DNA of 64,000 nt from Candidatus Forterrea multitransposorum CG_2015-17_Forterrea_25_41 (GCA_009392915.1 CP045477.1:224001-288000), one strand, 5' to 3'. Counted from the stretch's first letter, positions 37,801 through 52,306 are shown. The notes: generated from the sequence alone by a model not told the origin. Translations and numbers: made by a program.

Positions 37801-40800
37801 CTTTTGAAATACAAGCTATAAAGTCAAAATATTTTTCTCAGAATGTTTCTTTTACAATCGGAACTGATATTTTAGATGTTTATTCTCAAGAGCAAATATT
37901 ATCTTCTGAAAGTCCACTTGAAGTATTTATTCATAAAACAAATATTAATGGTGAAACTTATTCTTTAACTTTAAAAAACAAAACAAACTATGCTTTAAAA
38001 ATTAATCAATTTAATACTGAAGATTTTTCTTTTAATAAATCTTATTTACTTAATTTAGAGCAAACTGTTAATTATCTTAATAATCAAATAACTTCTCAAG
38101 CAGAAGGTTTTGTAATTCCTGCAAATGAATCTAAAGAAATTGTAATTAAGTTTGCCCCTTCAGATTCTGCAAGAACTCATCCTGTTTCAGAAGATATTTT
38201 AGGTGCAATTACAGGAAATTATTCTTTAAATAATTATGATTATCGTTTTACAATTCCTGTTAAAGCAAAATTTTCTGTTGGAAGTGGTGTTTTATTTGAT
38301 GATTGTTTAGTTGTAACTCAAAGTCCAGGAGAATGGAATACTGTTGTTTCTACAAGTACTCAAACAACTTCTTTTACAATAAAGAATACTTGTCTTTCAA
38401 AAGAAGGAGAAGTCCCAATACCTATTAAAAATGTACAAGCAAAGATATCTTCTCAAGCAGATAGATATGGTGTTTATTTCTTAAACCTTATAGGCCCATC
38501 TTCTTCAAATCAAATACAGTTGTCTGAAAATTACTATAGAGTTGTAATTGATCAAATGGCTCCTGAAGAAGAATATAGAGTTGATTTAACATTTAATACT
38601 AATGGTACAAGATTTGCAGATGTTAAAACAAATATACATCTTAATGCTCAAGTAGAAACTGAAGATGGTTTATCTTTTGTAAATAAAGAACCTAAAGATA
38701 TTTTCTTAAAAACAAATATTTCAATAATGAATCTTAATGATTGTTTTTCATATATTGATCAAAATGGAAAAGTAATTAATTCAGGTGGTCTTTATACTTT
38801 AGAAGGTATTGAAGAAAATGAATTAACTATTAGAAACAATTGTCAAGGAAAAGCTACTTTTAAAATGAATCTTTGTGATGCTTATGATTTAGGTTGTAAT
38901 GATTTAATTATTACAAATACAGATGAAGAAAATAATATTTTAAGATTTTCACTTAACGATTCTGAAAAAACAGTATATATTAAAAAAGATTCAACAAAAG
39001 CACCTGGTGCTTATATTCTTAATAACAGAGTCTCTGTTATAAATAATTTTGAAAGAGAACTTGCATCTTCTTTTGCTCTTTTAAAAATAAATGCAAAAGA
39101 TCCTAATGGTTTATGGATGGAAGATCCTTTTATAGAGATTAATGAAGATAAAGTTTCTGAGATTAAAAGATTATATAATAATAATTTAGAAAAGACTCCT
39201 TGGGATTATGCAAGTTATTATCAAGGAGAAGAAGGTTTTGGAAAATTTATAACAAATATTTATTATACAGGAAATACTTGGAAAAAATCTTTTAATCAAC
39301 ATTGGAGTAGATGTATAGCTGGAGATGATACTTGTTTATTTAACGGGGATAATTCTTTACTTTCAATGAGATTTTTACCAGAAAATCAATTAAGTAATGT
39401 TGGTGCAGAAGGATTAAGTGCAGGTGGTGCAATTGGGATAGGAATTGGTACTGCTGCAATTGTTTCATTAGTTTTAATTATGGCAAAAGTTGCTGTATTA
39501 GGAAGTCTTTTAGGACCTGTCGGTTGGATAGTTGCTGGACTTTCAATTGTTGTTGCATCAATAGCACCATCTTTCTTTTCAGATTATGATGTAGATGTGC
39601 AACCAAGGTTTTTGGATGTTTCTGAAAATAATACTATTGATAATTTAGTTGCTTTAAAAGAAATATCTGTAGATGATTTAAGTGATCAAAAAGAATTAAT
39701 TAATGTATTTGATATTACTGGTGCAAGATATTTTAAATATTTTAATAATGTTATTTTTGCACATGGAAAACTTGCTTCTAAAAAAGAAATTAAAAGTGTA
39801 CTTCCAAAATGTAATGGTATAAATAATTTAGTGCCTGTTGATCAATTTTTAAAAGTATATAATAAACCTCCATTTTGTGATGAAATAACTATAGAAGAAA
39901 CTGAAGATTCTTATATTTATAAAACAAGTTGTAATGGACAAAAATTAAATAGACTTGAATTAAATTTATTCTATAGTGCTTATTCAATATGTAAAAGTGA
40001 TGAAACATATTGGCCAGAACAAGCAGGTATAAAACCTTTACAGTTTAATTTAACTGATGAAATATATAATTTATTAGATAATGATTCTAAAAAATATTAT
40101 TTTAAAAAATATGAATTTAATCCAACTTTAGATGATTCAAATAGCACACAAGATTTAGCTTTTGTAGATTCAGATAGTGTAGGAAATTATAGATTTGGTT
40201 TCTTTTTAACAAAACCTGAAGAAACACCAAATTATGATCTTTCATTACAAGAATGTGTAACTGATACTGGAAGAACTGGAAAAACAGGAGAAGGTGCAGT
40301 TCCAAATATTTCTCTAAATTGGAATTGGGCTGAAACTGATTGTGCACAAACATATTGTGATGCAACTCAATTAACTCAAGATGTTTTAGATAGAATTAAT
40401 GATGCTGAAAAATTAATTTCATCAAATGTTGTTCAATGTCCTATAAGTAATCAAGAACTTTATGACCAAGCATTAAATGGTTCTTATAAAGTAACTGCAG
40501 AACCATCTGATGTTATTAATGAAATACCTGTTGGAAAAGTAGGTATTAATTCTGTAAAATTAGATTCTCAAAATAATAAATTAGCAATAAAAGTAGTTTT
40601 AGAAAACAGATCTGATACACCATCTTCAGGAACTATTGTTATTAGTCTTGATGATAAACAATTAGAATCTATAAAATACAGAGATGTAGCTTCAGGAGAA
40701 TATATTGAAGAAAATATAGATTATCCTGGATCTTATTCAAAAAGTATAACTGTTCCTTCTGGTATTGATAATACTAATGAAATAATTTTTGTTTATAAAG

Positions 40801-42248
40801 AAGGAATTTATGGTGAAGACTTACCTTTAACTATTGATTATTTAGCAACAAATTCACATAGTAATATGTTTGCTTCAAGTGTTGATTTATCAAGTTATCA
40901 AGCAGAAGAAATCAATGAGTGTCAAGTTCCAGCAACAACTGCAAGATTTGATGGAACAAGTTATTTAGATATGTGGCTTAATAAAGAAATGTATCCTGAT
41001 AATGTTGTAGGTTCTGGTTGGTCTCAAACTGATATTACAAAACTTAAAGAACTTTTAGAGTTTGATGCATACTTAATAACAGATAATTATAATAGTAATT
41101 TTAAAAATGACTTTGATATGGCCTTCGGTGGTCTTGCTTCAAAAGAAGATGGAGCTGGAGCTGGAAATTATGCTATAATGTCTTCTCCAACTGTGTTTTC
41201 AAATGGTTATCTTTCTAAATTATTTAAAAACAATTTAATATTTACAAAAGAATATTCAAGTGAAGAAAATGTAAATATTAATGTTCCAGGAAAATATAAA
41301 ATTAAAATTGATTTATTATTTGAAAATGGTTCTTGGAATTTTTATGAAGGTGATGATCTAGATGTAAATGCATTTGTAACTTTTAGATTTATTTCTTCTC
41401 CAGAAACAGATAGTGTTTTCTATAGAATGCCATTTAATGGATTTGTTGGAAAAACAACTTCTGGATATGATAGACAAGGTTATGGTGTTTCTTACTTAGG
41501 AGATTCTATAAGAGTTGATAATGAAAATGTAATTACAGAAGAAGATTATGGTTCAAATTCATTAAGAACAATAACTGTTACAAAATCAAATGATCTTTCA
41601 AGAATTAATTCAAATATTGAAACAAGAGGTAATCTATTAAGTATTAAATATAATCAAACAGACAATGTAGATTTAATATTTACTCCAAGCACACCAATTC
41701 CTTTACTTATGAGTATTGATAAGAGTAATAATAGCCCTCTTAATGTGATTTATAGACTTAAAGATAAGAGTGGTAATGCTATTAGTTCAACTTCTTTATT
41801 AAGATGGACAGGTGTTGGTTCTGGTTGTGACTTTTCTGGTAATTCTATATATAATATGACTTATTATGATAGATATGCTGGAGATGAAGGTGCAGTTTCT
41901 GCATATGTAGTTGATTGGCCACAAGTCTTAAGAACAGGAAAAATATATTTAAGAACTGTTTTCTATAGTCCTGAAAGAGAGTCTTATTCTTTAGAGAATA
42001 GATCTGATCAAGGTGTTATGGTTAAGTTTTCAAAGAATGGAACTAATTATTCTTCTTCAGTTTCTTTAGGTGAAGATGATTTAACAGGCATTAAATCTAT
42101 TTCAGATGTATTTAATTTAATTAAAGATAATAAAGTATGTGTTGTAAATTCATATGATGGAAAAACTTCTGATTTCTTTTATAATCCTTCAGAAATTTTT
42201 ACAGAGAAGTTTACAAAACAACCTTCTGATTCTTTAGAATGTAGTTAA
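34848..42248 (+). CDS. Giant (2466 aa) signal-anchored surface protein, paralog; it has an internal hydrophobic hairpin and C-terminal module B
   Basis: The N-terminus WQNFLTKIDNRIPIKKITGPLDKKNPLTSFFIFLLIILVVLYLIF is followed by beta-sandwich repeats and the shared CGEDFCFSGQYVDVSQDLRYD module. An internal segment reads GGAIGIGIGTAAIVSLVLIMAKVAVLGSLLGPVGWIVAGLSIVVASIAP. The C-terminus (FYRMPFNGFVG..RQGYGVSYLGD, WTGVGSGCDFSG, IYLRTVFYSP) is homologous to 31938..34832. Confidence 0.8.
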   Translation: MSFKDAWQNFLTKIDNRIPIKKITGPLDKKNPLTSFFIFLLIILVVLYLIFGSSITLNNQKLTEVTIRLADSDNNILDNFDFKIRNISDGITNSYVTNSSGSLTLELDLNKKYLLIIDSPNYELLEEEINLSLDSLNFIVTVLDTPINYLKTVYFEDALTNSLIEDSLNVTIRCDNGEIITPNTIDTQSGSVEINVPLECENIYASVRGDRYIEENLEMPITESTFKLESITEILESGRVSISVFSGEDIIQDSITIKIFSVDDSITPINTTQTTNGIGFFNSIPVGEYIVKASDVSNRYLQKQEQVTIIKNSLSEITFDLIDTDTDSPIIIDPDTNQEIVIREVTVFVKDKDSGEIIDSSFDPSVTLLLDGNENIEQRNLNEGFIFNISEDKSYSLKATAEGYIPGEIIPIISGKNTYIFNLEKITISNVSNLNITVQDEDLKPIVGLKSWIYDKDGQYIDPRFDFSTSDENGNIVFENIPDLNFTIKVKNSFIEETSSMYHNSPPEDTNITLPVEIGTGTVNLTVKNKLNDIVSNAQVTFYSESLEVLGSSFASSNGTLENDLKADKRIFIKIEADGYLPYFTELFRIYKNKTVTKEIILERENLSDDVSVEFLGLYNSLDTEVESLKNNEVFYFKFKAIMPVSSQHFNFVFRAGSFTSVTEDIVFIMPQNTSLGIPVYYENEPFNESGNYLESKLVDIEFLGYPASVHEITIPIRIKNAAINERVSFFYDSSINNIDFMSNNFNQLQYFIEATSLCGEDFCFSGQYVDVSQDLRYDISSNNLISTNIHSDYILEYQITNSSSNSFEDVRLSTRNLNNDDNPVAMININSYSISGEATSVGQTIEGENNFNIPFTGDEINLEKINPFSSINYTLNVTPLNLGQSKLTNRIISLQEEIYSLPINFSVSELETMEIDYEPKNIVPGLPFDLLVTVKDTQGEYLEGVNINILQKVRNEYITVSTGKTTDPQGNVIITLPSLRPGETFEIQAIKSKYFSQNVSFTIGTDILDVYSQEQILSSESPLEVFIHKTNINGETYSLTLKNKTNYALKINQFNTEDFSFNKSYLLNLEQTVNYLNNQITSQAEGFVIPANESKEIVIKFAPSDSARTHPVSEDILGAITGNYSLNNYDYRFTIPVKAKFSVGSGVLFDDCLVVTQSPGEWNTVVSTSTQTTSFTIKNTCLSKEGEVPIPIKNVQAKISSQADRYGVYFLNLIGPSSSNQIQLSENYYRVVIDQMAPEEEYRVDLTFNTNGTRFADVKTNIHLNAQVETEDGLSFVNKEPKDIFLKTNISIMNLNDCFSYIDQNGKVINSGGLYTLEGIEENELTIRNNCQGKATFKMNLCDAYDLGCNDLIITNTDEENNILRFSLNDSEKTVYIKKDSTKAPGAYILNNRVSVINNFERELASSFALLKINAKDPNGLWMEDPFIEINEDKVSEIKRLYNNNLEKTPWDYASYYQGEEGFGKFITNIYYTGNTWKKSFNQHWSRCIAGDDTCLFNGDNSLLSMRFLPENQLSNVGAEGLSAGGAIGIGIGTAAIVSLVLIMAKVAVLGSLLGPVGWIVAGLSIVVASIAPSFFSDYDVDVQPRFLDVSENNTIDNLVALKEISVDDLSDQKELINVFDITGARYFKYFNNVIFAHGKLASKKEIKSVLPKCNGINNLVPVDQFLKVYNKPPFCDEITIEETEDSYIYKTSCNGQKLNRLELNLFYSAYSICKSDETYWPEQAGIKPLQFNLTDEIYNLLDNDSKKYYFKKYEFNPTLDDSNSTQDLAFVDSDSVGNYRFGFFLTKPEETPNYDLSLQECVTDTGRTGKTGEGAVPNISLNWNWAETDCAQTYCDATQLTQDVLDRINDAEKLISSNVVQCPISNQELYDQALNGSYKVTAEPSDVINEIPVGKVGINSVKLDSQNNKLAIKVVLENRSDTPSSGTIVISLDDKQLESIKYRDVASGEYIEENIDYPGSYSKSITVPSGIDNTNEIIFVYKEGIYGEDLPLTIDYLATNSHSNMFASSVDLSSYQAEEINECQVPATTARFDGTSYLDMWLNKEMYPDNVVGSGWSQTDITKLKELLEFDAYLITDNYNSNFKNDFDMAFGGLASKEDGAGAGNYAIMSSPTVFSNGYLSKLFKNNLIFTKEYSSEENVNINVPGKYKIKIDLLFENGSWNFYEGDDLDVNAFVTFRFISSPETDSVFYRMPFNGFVGKTTSGYDRQGYGVSYLGDSIRVDNENVITEEDYGSNSLRTITVTKSNDLSRINSNIETRGNLLSIKYNQTDNVDLIFTPSTPIPLLMSIDKSNNSPLNVIYRLKDKSGNAISSTSLLRWTGVGSGCDFSGNSIYNMTYYDRYAGDEGAVSAYVVDWPQVLRTGKIYLRTVFYSPERESYSLENRSDQGVMVKFSKNGTNYSSSVSLGEDDLTGIKSISDVFNLIKDNKVCVVNSYDGKTSDFFYNPSEIFTEKFTKQPSDSLECS

Positions 42249-42321: not shown

Positions 42322-42684
42322 ATGAGAAGATACATTTATTTATTTTTAATCGTTTTCTTAGTTTTTCCATTTATTTCTGCACTTAGTTATGATAATGAAA
42401 TCTATGTAAACCCTTTTGTTTTTGGTGTAATTAGAGGGGATGATGGGGAAGTTATTTCAAATATTTCTGATGATGAAATAATAGATCCTGAAATGCAAGT
42501 TTCAAGTGCAAATGGGTTTACTAAAAAATCAGATCTTGATTTAACCATAAGAGAGAATCTTTTGATTTTTAAACTTCCTTCTTATCAAAAAACAAATAAT
42601 AATTCTTTAAATAAATATACTTTTATTTATAATACCTTTGATTATCCTTCAAAGAATGTAAATATTTTATTTAAATTAAATTGA
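42322..42684 (+). CDS. Small secreted protein (signal peptide)
   Basis: MRRYIYLFLIVFLVFPFISALS is a signal peptide. The stop overlaps the next gene's start (ATGA). Confidence 0.4.
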   Translation: MRRYIYLFLIVFLVFPFISALSYDNEIYVNPFVFGVIRGDDGEVISNISDDEIIDPEMQVSSANGFTKKSDLDLTIRENLLIFKLPSYQKTNNNSLNKYTFIYNTFDYPSKNVNILFKLN

Positions 42685-45110
42685 GAAAATATATGAGATA
42701 TTTAAAAAAAATTATTTTAACAGTAATATTAATTACTTTTATTTTACTAGTTCAATCATATGTGTTTTCAGCAAGTTGTAATTTAACTCCAAATCAAACT
42801 TCTCTTAGAACTCTTTCTTTAGGTTGTAGTGGTGATGCTTGTGATTTTGTTTTAATTAAAAGTGAAGATGTATCTTCTCAATATAATTCTTGTATTGATT
42901 CTTGTGATCCTGATAATTATCCTGAAAATTACAAAACTTGTATGACTGATTGTTATGATTCTTCAATTAATTCTACAACTGATATTTCATTAAACAGTTC
43001 TTTAAGTTTTTCAAAATCTTCTGAATGCTCTGATAAAGAAATAAATGTTTCTTTAGCAGCAGATATTAATTTTGAAATGTTAAATGAAACAACTTCTCTT
43101 TCAATTTCAGGTATTGATTCTTTAAATACTAATGGAAAAGATATTATAATTTTTGTAAACAATAATGATAAACTTGGAGATGCAACTTTTAGGTTTGATT
43201 TTAGTGATTTAATAATTTCTGATACTTCTAAAATAATTATGACAACAAAAGAAAGAACTTCAATTACAGATTCTATTAATGGTGGGTGGGATGATTGGAA
43301 AAGAGATGGTATTAAACTTTATTTTAATAATTTAGAAATATTAGAAAATGCATCACTTGATTTAAATATGTATATTCCTAAAAATATTTTTAATGTAATT
43401 GATGAAATAGATATGCCTAGAACTTCACTTGCAGGTGGTGAATTAACTTTTGATGGAAACTTAATAGTTAATAATGGTAATTTAAATATTTATCTAAAAG
43501 CACAAGATAGTCAAGATGGTAGAAATTATATAGATTCTGGAAATTGTTTTGATGATCCAGCTTCACAAGGTGGAACTGTTAAAGAGGCAGGGCACATATT
43601 TTTTAACTTAAATTATTTAGAGAATAATGGTTTACTTTTTTCTAAAATGTTATCTGGAAATGGTGGTATTGGAGGTAATGGATCAAAAGCTCAGGATGGA
43701 TGTCGTGGAGATCCTCCAGGTCATGGTGGTAGAGGGGGAAATGCAGGAGATATTTTTTTATATATTAATAATATAGATAATACTAGTAATATTGATTTTA
43801 ATTTAATTGCAGGAAATGCTGGTCCTGGTGGAGATACAGGTTTTGATGGTGGAAATTCTCGTGAAAATTTTGCTATTGGAGGTTCTGGTGGTAATGGAGG
43901 AAATATTTATTTTTGTAAACCAATTTGGAATTCTGGCTTTAGTTGTTTGATAAATAATTATAATTCATTAATAAATAAAGGTAATTTTAATTTAGTTGCA
44001 AATACTGGTTTTGGAAATAATGGTGGAAATAAGAATAATCATCCTGATGAAGGTAGAGCAGGAGATGGAGGAGATGGTGGTTCTTATTTATCAAGTTTAA
44101 CGTTTGATTTTATAAGAAACTCTGGAAATTTAAATATTGCTCTTGAAACAGGTTATGGTGGTTTTAAAGGAACTACTGATGGTGGTGAAGATGGTGTTGG
44201 TGGAAGAACTCCTAATTTTTTTATTAATTTCTTAGAAAATTCTTCTGAAAATTTAAATATATTTTTAAACAGTAAACATGAAATTGGTAATCTTGAATCA
44301 GATGTTATTATTGATAAATTACAAAATGGTAGTTATCTACCAAGTATGATATATACTGTTTTTACTGATTGGACTTTTACACCTAGTGAAGAGTGTGCAA
44401 TTAGTTGTCAATCTAAATTTGATTCTTGTTATCATTTGCCTTCAGCTTGTAATAGATTTTTAGATATGTGTTTATATACTTGTGATAAAACTACAGAAGA
44501 TCTTGAAACTGTTACACAAAATAGAAAAATAAAAATTAATGATGCATGTTATGTTAAACAACCATCAAGTGCTTTAGATTATATGACTGGATTTATATAT
44601 GTTAATTCTGCAAATAAAGATGTTTTTGAAAATCTTCTTCCAGAAAATGTTTCTTCTAATCTTACTAATAACTCAGAATGTGTAATCTGTGATTATTATG
44701 ATTTTGAAAATTTAAATGAAATATTTCCAACAGGTTCTGGAAATAAATTCTTTAAAAACTATACTTTATATTCTACAGTTCAAGGAAAAATTAATGCAGG
44801 AGATTTAGAAATACATTATGCTAAAAATGATCTATCTTTTACAAAAATAAATAAGCTTTATAATCCTTTTACAAAAGAAAATAATCTCCCACTTTATTCT
44901 AATAAACAAGATATAACAAGTAGTCAAGAACCTAATTCTCTAGGTTTGTATGAATATAATATAGATGCAAGTAATCTTGAATGGTATTATGATAAAGAAA
45001 TGGACTTATCAGAAAAAGATTTATATTGTTATAATCAAAATTATAGAATTGAAGGAAAAATAGGAACTAAGATTTTTAACTTCCCATTTACTCCATTATT
45101 TAAAAATTAA
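42681..45110 (+). CDS. Secreted Cys-rich / Gly-rich repeat protein (beta-solenoid-like GGxGG repeats)
   Basis: A signal peptide is followed by a Cys-rich N-domain (CNLTPNQTSLRTLSLGCSGDACDF...CIDSCDPDNYPENYKTCMTDC). The central region has periodic Gly-rich repeats (GNGGIGGNGSKAQDGCRGDPPGHGGRGGNAGDIFLY...IAGNAGPGGDTGFDGGNSRENFAIGGSGGNGGNIYF...GFGNNGGNKNN...GDGGDGGSYL...GGEDGVGGRTPNFF) separated by N-rich strands (NLNIAL, NLNIFL). The C-domain is Cys-rich. Confidence 0.6.
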   Translation: MRKYMRYLKKIILTVILITFILLVQSYVFSASCNLTPNQTSLRTLSLGCSGDACDFVLIKSEDVSSQYNSCIDSCDPDNYPENYKTCMTDCYDSSINSTTDISLNSSLSFSKSSECSDKEINVSLAADINFEMLNETTSLSISGIDSLNTNGKDIIIFVNNNDKLGDATFRFDFSDLIISDTSKIIMTTKERTSITDSINGGWDDWKRDGIKLYFNNLEILENASLDLNMYIPKNIFNVIDEIDMPRTSLAGGELTFDGNLIVNNGNLNIYLKAQDSQDGRNYIDSGNCFDDPASQGGTVKEAGHIFFNLNYLENNGLLFSKMLSGNGGIGGNGSKAQDGCRGDPPGHGGRGGNAGDIFLYINNIDNTSNIDFNLIAGNAGPGGDTGFDGGNSRENFAIGGSGGNGGNIYFCKPIWNSGFSCLINNYNSLINKGNFNLVANTGFGNNGGNKNNHPDEGRAGDGGDGGSYLSSLTFDFIRNSGNLNIALETGYGGFKGTTDGGEDGVGGRTPNFFINFLENSSENLNIFLNSKHEIGNLESDVIIDKLQNGSYLPSMIYTVFTDWTFTPSEECAISCQSKFDSCYHLPSACNRFLDMCLYTCDKTTEDLETVTQNRKIKINDACYVKQPSSALDYMTGFIYVNSANKDVFENLLPENVSSNLTNNSECVICDYYDFENLNEIFPTGSGNKFFKNYTLYSTVQGKINAGDLEIHYAKNDLSFTKINKLYNPFTKENNLPLYSNKQDITSSQEPNSLGLYEYNIDASNLEWYYDKEMDLSEKDLYCYNQNYRIEGKIGTKIFNFPFTPLFKN

Positions 45111-45133: not shown

Positions 45134-48100
45134 ATGTCAATATTTAAAAAATCAAGAGACAAAATAGAAGCAGAAAAGCTATATGCTCTTTTATCAGACA
45201 AAACTACAAACTATACTCTAGAGGATATTAAAGAGACTATTAAAAAACAAGGTTATTCTGATAAAGTTTCTTCAATTGTTGTAAAGATGATTACAGATAA
45301 TAAACTTCCTTTAAAAGATTCAGTTAATAAAACAAAAACAAAAGAAGAAGTCTTAAAAGAATTATCAGCTTCTGTTGATAAAAACTTCTCTAAACAAAAT
45401 CCAAAAGATTCTTCAAAAGATTCAAAAAAAGAAGATAAAAATAATCAAAAAGAAAATACAAAAAAACAAGAAGATATTAAAAAAGAAGATTCTAAAAAAC
45501 AAAAAGAAGATCTTAAAAAAACAAAAGAAACAAATTTAAAAAATATTAATAAAGTTCCTTTCTTTACAAAAGTAAAAACTTTCTTTAAAAGAATATATTT
45601 CTTTTTTGAAGATAATTACTATAAGATGGTTGATGGTGTAAGTAAAGTTATACCTCTAAACAAATTAACAGACAAAATAGATAAAGTTTTCCCAAGTTTC
45701 ATATTATTCTTATTAATCTTAGCTTTATTGATATATTTAATACTTTCAGGAAGTTTATCTTTCTCTAAAACTTGGACAGTTGCTGTAGAGGTTTATGACC
45801 CATCTTCTGTACCCTTAAAAGATGTTTCTGTAACTTTAATGCTTAAAGATGAAAATTTTTCAACTTTAAAAACAGATATTTTTGGTGAAGTTATTTTTAG
45901 TGATTTTAAATCTAGAAAACAAAATATTAATTTAATAGCTTCTAAAGATAATTATGATACAGTTGAACATTCCTTTAAATTAAGTAAAAGTAATTTAAGA
46001 CAAAAGTTATATCTTCCAACAGATGTAAATTCTAAGATTGATCCTTCAGAAGAAGAAGTAAGAGAAATTTCTTTTGTTGAAAATAATACTGTTTTAATAA
46101 CAGATTCTGTATTAACTACAAATTTTTCTTGTACTAATGCAGATGTAGAACCTAATCCTACAAGAAAAGTTATTTCTTCAGGAAAGGTAACAGTTACAAC
46201 TTATTCTGGTTGTGGTGCTTTAAGAGTTTCTGTAACTTCAGATGATTTTTCTTCAATTACAAATCAAGTTATAAATTCTTCAAATAAAGTAAATCTTACA
46301 AGAATTAATCTTGATAGAGGTAATTTAGGTTTCTCTGTTAAAAACATATCTGGAAGTTCAATTCCTGGAACAGAAGTTAAAGTTTATAGTTCTTCAAACA
46401 CTACTTTTCCTCATGATACAACCACAACTGATCTTTATGGTTTAGGTGAGTTTAGTTTAGAACCTAAAAGTTATTTTTTAACTTTCTCAAAAGAAGGTTA
46501 TCTAACAAATCCTTTAAAAGGTCCTTTAACTGTTATTAAAAATGATTCTGTAAACACAGATGTAGTTTTATTTACTTTAGATGATCTTTTAGAATTTGAT
46601 TGTTCTGATGATAAATATTCACAATTTTGTATTGCTGATGAAATTGATTGTTTTAATCCAAACTTAAAACCATTTTTAATAAATAATGCTGATGGTTCTT
46701 GTACAATTGGAAGACCAGGTTATATTTCTGTAACTTTAAAAGATGTTAATTCTGGAGAACCTGTATATGCAGATATAACTTTAGATTCAAAATTAAAAGA
46801 ATCTGATCAAAACTTTTCTCTTGGTGAACATATTGCAAGGGATACTAATTTCTATACTTTTAATGTTATTGATTTCTATAATTATAGAGTAAGAGTTTTA
46901 AATACAGAAGAGAGTGGTTATCTTCAACCAGATCCAGTCACTGTAAACGGTATTGATCAAAATATAACAGTTAATTTAGAATATTCTTCTTCCCTTAACT
47001 CAGGAGATATTTCAGTAAATGTTAAGAGTGCAGATATGCCTATCTCAAATGCAAGAGTTTATTTATATAAAGAGTTTGAAGATGATTTTGTTTTAGTAAA
47101 TTCTGATCCATTATTTACAAATCAAAATGGAGATGTTAATTTTTATTCTCAAAGAGCAAATAGAGATTATTATGCTTATGCTTTACATAATGTTTTAGAT
47201 AAACAAGGAACTTCACAAACAGATGATTTAGATGTTAACTCAATACTTGATTTATCAATAGATCTTGAAGATATTCCAAAGATATTAAATCTAAAGGTAA
47301 GTCCAAGTATTTCTTATGATATTAATTTTTATAATTCTTCAGATAATCTTGTAACTGAATATGTAAGAACAGATCTTGAAGATGGAAATTCTCTTTATTA
47401 TTTTACAGGTTCTATAAATAAAGTTTATGCAGTTGTTTCTTCTTCAGGTTATACTACCTATCAAACAGATTATATTACTTTAATACCTGATCAAGAAGTT
47501 TATAAAACAGTTAATCTTTCTACACTTTCTTCTTGTGAAGACTCTAAGTTAGAAATTTTAGGTCTTTATGATGGTTCTGGAGTTTTAGAAATTGATAATA
47601 TTGATTTTGTTGAAAATGATTTAGATAAAGAATACAGATTAAAGTTTAAATATATTTCATGTACAGAAGATGAAGAATACAATCAAGCTACTTTAAGACT
47701 TGGAAGACAAGGTTTAATAGATGATGAATATTTATTCTTTGTTTCAGATCAATTTACTTCTCAAGATATAGATGTTACAAGAGGTTATAAATTTTCACAA
47801 GAACATATACCTGACTTTAATTTTGATCTTTTCAATCTTAATTATTCTCAAGATAGATCTTATGATTATTCTGGTGAAGGTTATAAATGGATTGAAATTG
47901 ATTTTGAAAAATTAAATTCTGATATCTTAGAGTTTTCAACTAACTTTAAGTTCAGAGAAGATTCAATTGTTCCTTTTGAAAACTATGTTTTAAATTATAA
48001 ATCATTTGCAAGTATTTATGATGAACTTTATTCTTTTGATCCTGTTTTAAATGAATCTTGGACAGAGATACCAATCTATCCTAATGGTTATTTTTATGCA

Positions 48101-51579: not shown

Positions 51580-51951
51580 ATGAGTAATATTTTTTTAAAT
51601 TTTTTAAATGATTTTGATTTAATCTTACAGTTATTTTTAATTCTTACAATCATTGCATTTATCAGAAGAAGAGTAACTCACAATACATTAGCTCTTTTTT
51701 TAATAAGTGTAACAGTTATTGCTATGATCTTTTTATTCTGGCCTGTCTTTAAAATTGGATATATTTTCTATATTCTTTTGTCAGTTGGAGTTGCAGGAAT
51801 ATTTGTTGATTTCTTCTTTATTAGTGCTGGTGGTTCTGCAGAAGAGATGATGGGTAAAAAAATGGAGACTCATGGAACTCCTGGAGCAACTGAACATGCT
51901 GCAAGAAATCAATTAGTTAAAAAAATGGGTGGAAGACCTCCTGGAAGATGA
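51580..51951 (+). CDS. Small membrane protein (3 TM helices), possibly the N-terminal half of a split gene
   Basis: It starts 3 nt after the giant gene's stop. Hydrophobic helices are followed by the basic tail MGGRPPGR. Confidence 0.4.
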   Translation: MSNIFLNFLNDFDLILQLFLILTIIAFIRRRVTHNTLALFLISVTVIAMIFLFWPVFKIGYIFYILLSVGVAGIFVDFFFISAGGSAEEMMGKKMETHGTPGATEHAARNQLVKKMGGRPPGR

Positions 51952-52306
51952 ATTAAAAATGAATAGTAATAAAGGTTTTTTTGGTGGTATTCCTTTAATT
52001 GCAAAGATATTAGTAGTGTCTGTTATTGCAATTTTGATTGTTCCTGGGGCAATGGCAATTTTTCCTTGGGTTAAGTATGTTATAATGGGTTTAATTGTTT
52101 TTTTTATTTATGAAAACGCAGCACAGGCTTTTGGTGAAAAAAATATTCTTACCTTTATTGTGACTGGTATTTTAGCTTATTTTTTAGTTTATAAATATTT
52201 ATTTCTTACAAGTGCTATAATGATGGCATATTTATTTTTAGGCTTTGGTTTAGTTTCTGTTTTCTTTTGGGGAACTTCTACTCTTTCCAGAAAAGGCAAA
52301 AAATAA
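51929..52306 (+). CDS. Small membrane protein (3-4 TM helices)
   Basis: It overlaps the previous ORF by 23 nt in another frame and is hydrophobic throughout. Confidence 0.4.
   Translation: MEDLLEDELKMNSNKGFFGGIPLIAKILVVSVIAILIVPGAMAIFPWVKYVIMGLIVFFIYENAAQAFGEKNILTFIVTGILAYFLVYKYLFLTSAIMMAYLFLGFGLVSVFFWGTSTLSRKGKK

Follow-up and report, generated by a model that had tools for sequence, protein, structure and literature searches.

What structure is built by the glycine-rich part of a protein encoded between two giant surface-protein genes, and what such a structure would do at the cell surface, are the questions raised by a 64,000-nucleotide stretch of DNA from Candidatus Forterrea multitransposorum CG_2015-17_Forterrea_25_41 (GCA_009392915.1 CP045477.1:224001-288000; at its full length, the window). 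A preliminary description made from the sequence alone had pointed out Gly-rich periodic repeats in a secreted protein of 809 amino acids (aa) and proposed for them a solenoid of the beta-helix, beta-roll or ice-binding-like type with a matrix, adhesive or spacer role. The analysis reported here favors, with a probability of about 60%, an exported surface protein in which a hybrid solenoid, part beta and part polyglycine-II (PGII), serves as a swappable recognition or adhesion cassette. The family to which the protein belongs is uncharacterised, and its predicted fold would combine two known principles in a way that was not found described.

Residue numbers refer throughout to the 809-aa translation (from TTG at 42681). 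The seven Gly blocks of the preliminary description are all present at aa 326-529 in the translation of 42681..45110, namely GNGGIGGNG (aa 326-334, nucleotides (nt) 43656-43682), GHGGRGGNAG (aa 347-356), GNAGPGGDTGFDGGN (aa 378-392), GGSGGNGGN (aa 400-408), GFGNNGGNKNN (aa 443-453), GDGGDGGS (aa 461-468) and GGEDGVGGR (aa 501-509, nt 44181-44207), and so are the four strands rich in Asn, Ile and Leu (NIDFNLIA, aa 370-377; NFNLVA, aa 435-440; NLNIAL, aa 483-488; NLNIFL, aa 524-529, nt 44250-44267). The interval first assigned to them, 43650-44220, holds the Gly blocks, but the last strand lies beyond its end and the repeat array starts earlier, at 43434. Gly accounts for 25.5% of aa 321-512 compared with 4.5-6.3% of six large neighboring open reading frames (ORFs), and for up to 14 residues per 50-aa window compared with a maximum of 11 in those ORFs.

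The periodic repeats are real and their units are homologous, but the true period is about 50 aa and includes two Gly blocks and two strands. Each unit comprises a first Gly block (G1, GxGGxGG), a variable loop of 10-16 residues, a second Gly block (G2, GGxGGxGG), strand 1 (xIxxxxIxxI), an Asn turn and strand 2 (xLxIxL), with the consensus GxGGxGG-x(10-16)-GGxGGxGGxI..I..IxN....LxIxL; in the family consensus the Gly segments read G.GG.GG.G and GG.GG.GG. Five to six such units form an array from aa ~252 (nt 43434) to aa 531 (nt 44273), numbered 0 to 5 in Table 1. In hhalign comparisons units 1-4 align with one another from end to end (probability 92-98%, E-values 3e-13 to 7e-7), although the units are only ~30-45% identical. 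Unit 1, whose Gly segments are degenerate in this protein, reads GGxGGxGG in the family consensus and matches units 2 and 3 with probabilities of 97-98%; the degenerate unit 5 matches unit 4 (95.7%) over G2 and the strand part.

Alignments of 15 and then of 39 sequences, extending down to 25% identity, indicate which positions are retained. Most of the invariant or near-invariant columns of the region are Gly, and the other conserved positions are one Asn per unit and alternating Ile/Leu residues. The Asn residues form a ladder (N315, N367, N432, N480, and N520) conserved in 87-100% of the 39 homologues, and conserved Ile/Leu positions include 365, 375, 409, 515, and 518. The x residue of GGxGG is Asn in 35% and Asp in 12% of cases. 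At the DNA level no tandem repeat occurs in the region beyond 2-3 copies of 9-nt GGN GGN motifs, which rules out a DNA tandem repeat as the source of the protein periodicity. N-glycosylation sequons, considered as a marker of surface location, are as frequent as expected from composition and are uninformative.

The full-length protein was modelled with AlphaFold2 (AF2) from 15 sequences (pLDDT, for predicted local distance difference test, 80; predicted template modelling score, pTM, 0.74), giving an N-terminal signal helix, a Cys-stapled cap, regular strand sets over aa ~100-545, a second Cys-rich hairpin of helices (aa 570-599) and, at the C-terminus, a domain rich in beta structure. Modelling of aa 240-545 from 39 sequences (pLDDT 91.8, pTM 0.89) gave six evenly spaced pairs of strands of ~10 and ~7 residues. 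In these models the rungs of aa 100-250 are short and mostly composed of three strands, and those of aa 252-531 have two strands per ~50-residue unit. The predicted fold is a three-dimensional stack of parallel beta coils like that of solved beta-helices, with an Asn ladder and a stacked aliphatic core, and agrees with the position-specific conservation described above. On these models a solenoid fold is very probable, and the modelling thus returned the repetitive structure that the preliminary description had anticipated rather than disordered Gly loops.

What the Gly blocks themselves form within this solenoid is a separate matter, for which several observations, each weak or indirect when taken separately, together suggest stacked PGII helices. 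Distances between Gly residues peak strongly, and solely, at lag 3 (z = 5.2 for this protein, 3.8-7.6 over all 39 family members), with no signal at lag 2. In a helix with three residues per turn this GxG register puts Gly on two faces out of three, and it cannot be reconciled with a strand, where residues alternate in twos. Modelled as part of aa 240-545, the Gly blocks reach pLDDT values >90 and are assigned by DSSP neither to strand nor to helix, with single beta-bridges flanking G2; the loops between G1 and G2 have values of 63-74 in the full-length model. Gly occupies two-thirds of the positions of the blocks in a GGX/GXG register, a composition that has been associated with two-layer polyproline-II (PPII) assemblies such as the snow-flea antifreeze protein (bioRxiv 10.1101/2023.11.25.568672). 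The top match of a Foldseek search against the PDB is the PPII-bundle antifreeze protein 7jjv (E-value 1.6e-3, probability 0.98, template modelling (TM) score 0.41-0.47 on the target); 3bog and 2pne, of the same type, are also returned, whereas all beta-helices have E-values > 0.5 and superpose on only about half of the Gly-rich domain. Among PDB sequences, both the family profile (E-values 0.12-0.9) and the profile of a single unit (E-value 0.016) retrieve only Obg GTPases, below threshold, in alignments that span G1, loop, G2, and strand, and the sole Pfam family with matches in two or more members is GTP1_OBG (7 of the 39; best E-value 3.9e-4). For the N-domain of Obg the structure has been solved, a fold containing six PPII helices. 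The lattice spacing of polyglycine II in fibre diffraction, ~4.8 Å, is similar to the per-coil rise of a beta-solenoid, and for this reason PGII helices could stack in register with the strands. The GxG periodicity, the confident non-strand state of the model, the PPII-bundle matches and the recurring Obg similarity speak against the earlier notion that the Gly blocks are simple turns of a beta-helix; together they make it probable that the blocks are PGII (PPII-type) helices stacked in two layers. Membership in the Obg fold was rejected, as the matches are sub-threshold and the protein has no GTPase domain; the likeness is at the level of the G1-loop-G2-strand motif.

Comparison of the window with the aligned sequences of five related strains indicates that the same region is exchanged between genomes. 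The flanks, including the N-terminal half of the gene, its C-terminal domain and the neighboring genes, are 94-99% identical between strains, whereas a hypervariable cassette (cassette I), coinciding with the Gly-rich units, has alleles that are 73-87% identical to one another at the DNA level, except for one near-identical pair, and in four of the five strains 63-80% identical to the window sequence in 150-nt windows. Synonymous divergence (dS) amounts to 0.43-0.56 in cassette I vs. 0.04-0.11 in the flanks, and the cassette is overall ~10 times more divergent between strains than its surroundings. A second cassette (cassette II, 44385-44486) has a DNA identity of 46-58%, or is affected by insertion or deletion, and its protein identity is 25% among close homologues; it encodes the Cys hairpin of aa 569-602, the single most variable segment between strains. 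Within the units of close homologues the G1-G2 loops are the least conserved parts (43-66% protein identity), compared with the Gly blocks (64-93%, seven of the nine at >=80%) and the strands (71-85%); the ratio of nonsynonymous to synonymous divergence (dN/dS), by a crude Nei-Gojobori estimate per segment, is 0.74 in the loops vs. 0.36 in the strands. Judged from sequence, cassette I consists of old, divergent alleles that recombination has shuffled into a mosaic, like those of surface antigens and phage receptor-binding proteins.

Targeted mutagenesis by a diversity-generating retroelement was considered as a source of this variation and rejected, because substitution rates show no adenine bias (A 0.23-0.25, C 0.32-0.42, G 0.18-0.20, T 0.18-0.25), third codon positions change most, and no second copy (template repeat) of the variable region occurs in the 64-kb window. 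Moreover, no reverse transcriptase was found among the ORFs of the window scanned with Pfam, and the variable tract extends over ~850 nt with insertions and deletions.

These data can be accommodated in the following proposal. The core of the protein would be a right-handed beta-solenoid of ~11-12 coils (aa ~100-545), in which the last five or six coils (aa ~252-531) are built of the ~50-residue units, each contributing two strands joined through the Asn turn plus a G1/G2 hairpin. G1 and G2 would be PGII helices, stacked in two layers along successive coils in the manner of the snow-flea antifreeze protein and Obg. Each coil would then be a flattened racetrack, one half a curli-like two-strand sandwich and the other a snow-flea-like two-layer PPII sheet, with the variable loop closing the far end; the coils would together form a rigid flat platform, with a loop of 9-16 residues from each of them lined up along its far edge. 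The exported protein, possibly lipid-anchored (an idea prompted by the invariant Cys that follows the signal peptide), would project as a beta-solenoid rod of ~5-6 nm, its distal half stiffened and widened by the PGII sheet. The row of variable loops would be the binding edge, and the conserved C-terminal domain, with its four invariant Cys and FxFPFTPLF terminus, would attach the protein to the envelope or to the giant neighbors; ligand binding by the loops and docking by the C-terminal domain are both inferred. Since the loops vary most and the Gly-rich domain is exchanged as a divergent allelic cassette, recognition or adhesion at the cell surface, directed at a host cell, a partner protein or a glycan, is the most likely role and one to which even odds are given. 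A secreted surface role, adhesive as the preliminary description proposed, is in keeping with the signal peptide, with the conserved place of the gene among giants with Ig-like domains, with the hypervariability seen between strains and with the lack of conserved catalytic residues.

Several points weigh against this interpretation. The assignment of the Gly blocks to PGII, and with it their two-layer packing, is indirect. The Foldseek score of 7jjv (values given above) is borderline, and Foldseek weighs amino-acid identity together with the 3Di structural alphabet, so that Gly content may drive the match. The Obg matches are below significance or gathering thresholds and would represent a motif-level lead, not membership. 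For repeat sequences AF2 has a known tendency to produce beta-solenoids that are confident yet unrealistic, an effect demonstrated for perfect repeats (PMC11795689); the units modelled here are imperfect. With respect to variation, the dN/dS of the loops is below 1 and positive selection is not demonstrated, and the raised dS, which reflects recombining old alleles, is compatible with diversifying or balancing selection but is no proof of it.

The tendency of AF2 to over-predict solenoids bears most directly on the view that the Gly-rich stretch is a disordered or low-complexity linker and the solenoid an artefact of modelling. Gly-rich segments are commonly disordered, and the modest confidence of the G1-G2 loops in the full-length model would fit such a linker. 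The units are nevertheless far from perfect repeats, Gly, Asn and alternating hydrophobic positions are conserved over deep divergence, the number of units and their register are kept, the strands are amphipathic with an inner and an outer side, and pLDDT rose from 80 to 91.8 with the deeper alignment; a linker is accordingly considered improbable. The protein could also be an ordinary right-handed parallel beta-helix adhesin in which the Gly blocks are long flexible turns (T-loops) devoid of PGII packing. Beta-helices, though, superpose on only about half of the domain, and in turns of this kind a strict GxG register, with Gly at six positions out of nine, would not be expected to persist among 25%-identical homologues, nor would pLDDT values above 90 be expected in the model; in addition, the best structural matches are PPII-bundle antifreeze proteins and the sole recurring sequence match is Obg. 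The preliminary description took the periodicity as typical of a beta-helix or beta-roll, but a period of ~50 aa is typical of neither. Sequence searches fail to place the protein in a pectin-lyase-like or PbH1 family: the Gly-rich protein has no Pfam match at E-value <= 1, no significant NCBIfam or PHROGs family and no phmmer match to PDB sequences, and across the 39 members no PbH1, Beta_helix, NosD or pectate-lyase family recurs at E-value <= 10. A plain beta-helix adhesin is regarded as unlikely.

The beta-helix could instead belong to a carbohydrate-active enzyme (a lyase, glycosidase or epimerase such as those of PL6, GH28 or the tailspike depolymerases) remodelling a glycan of the host or matrix. 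No conserved cluster of Asp, Glu, Lys, Arg, or His was found in the solenoid (aa 100-545) of the 39 homologues, where conservation reaches 70% at no more than two such positions, D389 (77%) and 192 (basic, 72%), no enzyme family is matched in Pfam or NCBIfam, and variability is highest in the putative groove region; an enzymatic role was rejected on these grounds and has little likelihood. The ~9-residue Gly-rich segments recall Ca2+-binding RTX-type beta-rolls and the Gly repeats of PE_PGRS proteins, both named as families to look for in the preliminary description. The blocks (8-11 aa) are not tandem but alternate with strands, they lack the GGxGxD motif and any conserved Asp, their x residue is mostly Asn, neither HemolysinCabind nor PE is matched at E-value <= 1 (nor Beta_helix or NosD), and the organism is an archaeon of the Iainarchaeota, not a mycobacterium, all of which makes either assignment exceedingly improbable. 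Finally, an ice-binding or antifreeze function was considered, in which a flat face of Gly helices would bind ice like that of the springtail antifreeze proteins. The exposed x residues, however, are mostly Asn/Asp and variable, unlike the regular arrays of small residues or Thr that bind ice, and both the allelic hypervariability and the adhesin-like gene cluster argue for a biological partner, leaving this function very unlikely.

Table 1. Position of the Gly-rich gene, its parts and its neighbors in the window.
Feature	Position	Strand	Description
Gene of the Gly-rich solenoid protein	42693..45110	+	805 aa from ATG; the ORF listing gives TTG at 42681, 809 aa
Signal peptide, aa 5-32	42693..42776	+	MRYLKKIILTVILITFILLVQSYVFSAS, followed by invariant Cys33; AF2 helix 2-28
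N-terminal Cys-rich cap, aa 33-99	42777..42977	+	Twin-CX3C helix hairpin C71x3C75 and C87x3C91; AF2 helices 66-74, 81-95
Conventional beta-helix coils, aa 100-250	42978..43430	+	Short rungs, mostly three-strand (predicted)
Hypervariable cassette I	43400..44250		Coincides with the Gly-rich units; from inter-strain DNA identity and dS
Unit 0, aa 252-273	43434..43499	+	Strand pair LTFDGNLIVN / GNLNIYL
Unit 1, aa 274-324	43500..43652	+	Degenerate Gly segments, variable loop, strand pair
Unit 2, aa 325-377	43653..43811	+	G1 GNGGIGGNG, loop SKAQDGCRGDPP, G2 GHGGRGGNAGD, strands IFLYINNIDN / NIDFNLI
Unit 3, aa 378-442	43812..44006	+	G1 GNAGPGGDTG, loop, G2 GGSGGNGGN, Cys-bracketed insert aa 409-425, strand pair
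Unit 4, aa 443-490	44007..44150	+	G1 GFGNNGGNK, loop, G2 GDGGDGGS, strand pair
Unit 5, aa 491-531	44151..44273	+	Degenerate G1/G2 (GYGGFKGT, GVGGR), strands FFINFLEN / NLNIFL
Second twin-CX3C helix hairpin, aa 569-602 (hypervariable cassette II)	44385..44486	+	AF2 helices 570-579, 587-599
Conserved C-terminal beta-rich domain, aa 603-809	44487..45107	+	Invariant C623, C667xxC670, C783; terminal FxFPFTPLF
Small protein, 120 aa, upstream partner gene	42322..42684	+	Hydrophobic N-terminus; from ORF listing and synteny
Upstream giant surface protein, 2466 aa	34848..42248	+	Conserved neighbor; Pfam CarboxypepD_reg, SpaA, Big_1; synteny
Downstream giant surface protein, 2147 aa	45134..51577	+	Conserved neighbor; C-terminal ~330 aa paralogous to the upstream giant; synteny
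Two small, very hydrophobic ORFs, 123 and 125 aa	51580..51951, 51929..52306	+	Apparently multi-pass membrane proteins; after the downstream giant

Outside the Gly-rich units, F29 and C33 are invariant in the family and lie directly after the hydrophobic core of the signal peptide (VFSAS-C, aa 29-33, nt 42765-42779; variants VFA-C, IFAC, and MFASC), from which export and possible lipidation are inferred; C33 could be an anchoring Cys of an archaeal lipobox-like motif or the disulfide partner of the invariant C116. The Cys-rich caps noticed at both ends of the repeat region are borne out (eight Cys in aa 33-116 and six in aa 572-601), and both solenoid ends (aa 66-95, nt 42876-42965, and aa 569-602) are capped by twin-CX3C hairpins resembling CHCH-type disulfide staples. 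The second hairpin (C572x3C576 and C597x3C601) is missing in distant homologues. The C-terminal domain is the most conserved part of the family, and the terminal sequence FNFPFTPLFKN (aa 799-809, nt 45075-45107) is among its best conserved motifs, with F803 invariant and P805 present in 97% of members; this sequence may act as a docking strand. The C-terminus of the protein has neither a transmembrane segment nor a known sorting signal.

The protein is 100% identical to the NCBI entry "hypothetical protein GW835_02495 [archaeon]" of 805 aa. The TTG start at 42681, sharing nucleotides with the stop codon that ends the 120-aa ORF, is doubtful because all close homologues as well as the NCBI record begin at the ATG at 42693 (MRYLKK), and it is probably an artefact of choosing the earliest possible start codon. 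From the ATG the two genes are separated by 8 nt, and only from the TTG do they overlap (by 4 nt), so the translational coupling claimed in the preliminary description rests on a start codon that is probably wrong. A gene for 120-142 aa is nevertheless found directly upstream of the Gly-rich gene in every homologue examined; the 120-aa protein itself has no Pfam or PHROG match.

The gene order comprising a giant of ~2450 aa, the 120-142-aa small protein, the Gly-rich gene, a giant of ~2100 aa and two small membrane proteins does not change across homologues of 91% to 29% identity. The two giants carry CarboxypepD_reg, SpaA and Big_1 Ig-like domains together with an N-terminal membrane anchor and are paralogous over their C-terminal ~330 aa (25% identity, E-value 1e-10); they also share a TGE(G/S)AVP..NW motif region. 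The pair of small hydrophobic ORFs has no Pfam match and keeps its position in three related loci (L001, L003, L009). Judged from gene order and domain content, the locus is a conserved cell-surface gene cluster. In strain L009, which is otherwise 96-97% identical, 39210-40010 and 40552-40863 of the 2466-aa giant gene fail to align or, between them, align at only 86%, and identity drops to 0.36-0.71 at 45492-45741 of the 2147-aa giant gene, where separate ORFs of 139 and 1949 aa replace the single 2147-aa ORF; because these stretches diverge or do not align, the giant surface genes also carry hypervariable or indel hotspots.

In loci with 10-kb flanks the cluster is followed by genes for HU and then histidyl-tRNA synthetase (HisRS). 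In the window an 89-aa ORF with a bacterial HU-like start (MNKSTLIEAVVKK) occupies the position between the surface-protein cluster and HisRS in this archaeal genome (52508..52777, + strand); its counterpart in related loci has a precomputed Pfam match to Bac_DNA_binding (HU) and is syntenic in L001, L003, and L009. The window has a G+C content of 25%, all of its large genes lie on the + strand, and its housekeeping genes (NurA, prolyl-tRNA synthetase with a ProRS-C_1 domain, HisRS and alanyl-tRNA synthetase) are of archaeal type. The relatives of the Gly-rich protein derive from metagenome-assembled genomes of "Candidatus Iainarchaeum" and "Diapherotrites" and, therefore, the organism belongs to the DPANN archaea.

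The family is confined to the Iainarchaeota (Diapherotrites). An exhaustive profile search retrieved 41 cluster representatives at E-value < 1e-30, most of them full length, and ~80 weaker matches confined to the solenoid part. Every weaker match that was inspected is a bacterial surface protein, and several (e.g., from Oscillospiraceae) are lipoproteins that contain Listeria-Bacteroides repeats. Five (P0055, P0058, P0061, P0066, and P0072) are lipoproteins of ~410-450 aa forming one cluster from Oscillospiraceae/Ruminococcaceae, in which an N-terminal Listeria-Bacteroides repeat is clear in some, falls below threshold in P0061 and was not detected in P0055 or P0058. The remainder of these proteins consists of the strand pair and the double GGxGGxGG unit, outside Pfam and NCBIfam coverage. 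The bacterial set matches the archaeal profile with hmmsearch E-values of 1e-12 to 1e-3 over 200-400 profile positions, an archaeal unit aligns to it in hhalign (92%, E-value 5e-7), and the z value of Gly at lag 3 has a median of 6.6. Some of the bacterial proteins weakly match phage tail-fibre PHROGs (E-value ~1.5e-3). In another of the matches (P0056) the Gly-rich module is combined with a MACPF/perforin domain.

Natural Gly-rich PPII assemblies are rare and, if the proposed structure is true, a solenoid alternating PPII and beta segments would be a new way of building repeat proteins and a new design scaffold. Tentatively, the protein may represent an undescribed fold class, with one beta-strand pair and one PGII-helix hairpin per coil and a beta-sandwich fused lengthwise to a two-layer PPII sheet, which would be used as a hypervariable, swappable cassette on a DPANN surface and reused as a module by bacterial lipoproteins and possibly phage tail fibres. 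Cell contact in the uncultivated DPANN (Iainarchaeota) is poorly understood, and the gene is a candidate specificity determinant on account of its conserved place among giant surface genes, the absence of an enzyme signature, the rigid predicted platform and the divergent cassette. As the module is unannotated and also occurs in lipoproteins of gut Firmicutes, a Pfam-style family definition would annotate proteins well beyond the archaeal family.

Among known systems, the bacterial lipoproteins with Listeria-Bacteroides (Flg_new) repeats (e.g., MBE6557405.1) share with the archaeal protein the succession of strand pair, GGxGGxGG, loop and GGxGGxGG but differ in their N- and C-terminal domains, their lipoprotein signals and the absence of a giant-gene cluster. 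Beta-helix adhesins (EtpA, HMW1, FHA, HxuA, UpaB, Candida Awp A-domains and tapirins) have three-strand rungs of ~22 residues, whereas the last five to six coils of the present protein have ~50 residues, two strands and two (GxG)3 segments, and the protein lacks a Pfam beta-helix match; adhesins of the two-partner secretion and autotransporter types moreover carry a secretion domain of their own, which is absent from the archaeal protein. Curli CsgA has ~20-residue coils without a Gly-helix hairpin and is an amyloid subunit secreted via CsgG, in contrast to the Gly-rich protein, in which no curlin repeat is matched in Pfam, nor does one recur among the 39 members. RTX beta-rolls also have ~9-residue Gly-rich segments within a solenoid, but these are tandem GGxGxDxUx nonapeptides with a conserved Asp. 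In PE_PGRS proteins, which are mycobacterial, an N-terminal PE domain is followed by a long uninterrupted GGA/GGN array.

The Gly-rich PPII assemblies that have been reviewed include the snow-flea/springtail antifreeze proteins, Obg, acetophenone carboxylase, phage S16 gp38 and ALK/LTK (bioRxiv 10.1101/2023.11.25.568672). In gp38, conserved Gly-rich motifs occur together with hypervariable segments (bioRxiv 10.1101/2023.11.25.568672), and the archaeal protein has the same arrangement, its conserved Gly blocks (64-93% identity) framing variable loops (43-66%). The analogy is one of design only: no gp38 chain was found in the profile searches of PDB sequences at E-value <= 10, and the archaeal protein has no tail-fibre PHROG match, so homology to gp38 was rejected. 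As in the PPII bundles (3bog, 2pne, 7jjv, Obg 1lnz, S16 gp38 and ALK/LTK), the Gly blocks follow a (GxG)n/(GGx)n pattern with two-thirds Gly; in those proteins, however, the helices alone form a compact bundle, whereas in the structure proposed here pairs of helices would alternate with pairs of strands, and the helices of each layer would be parallel and one coil apart.

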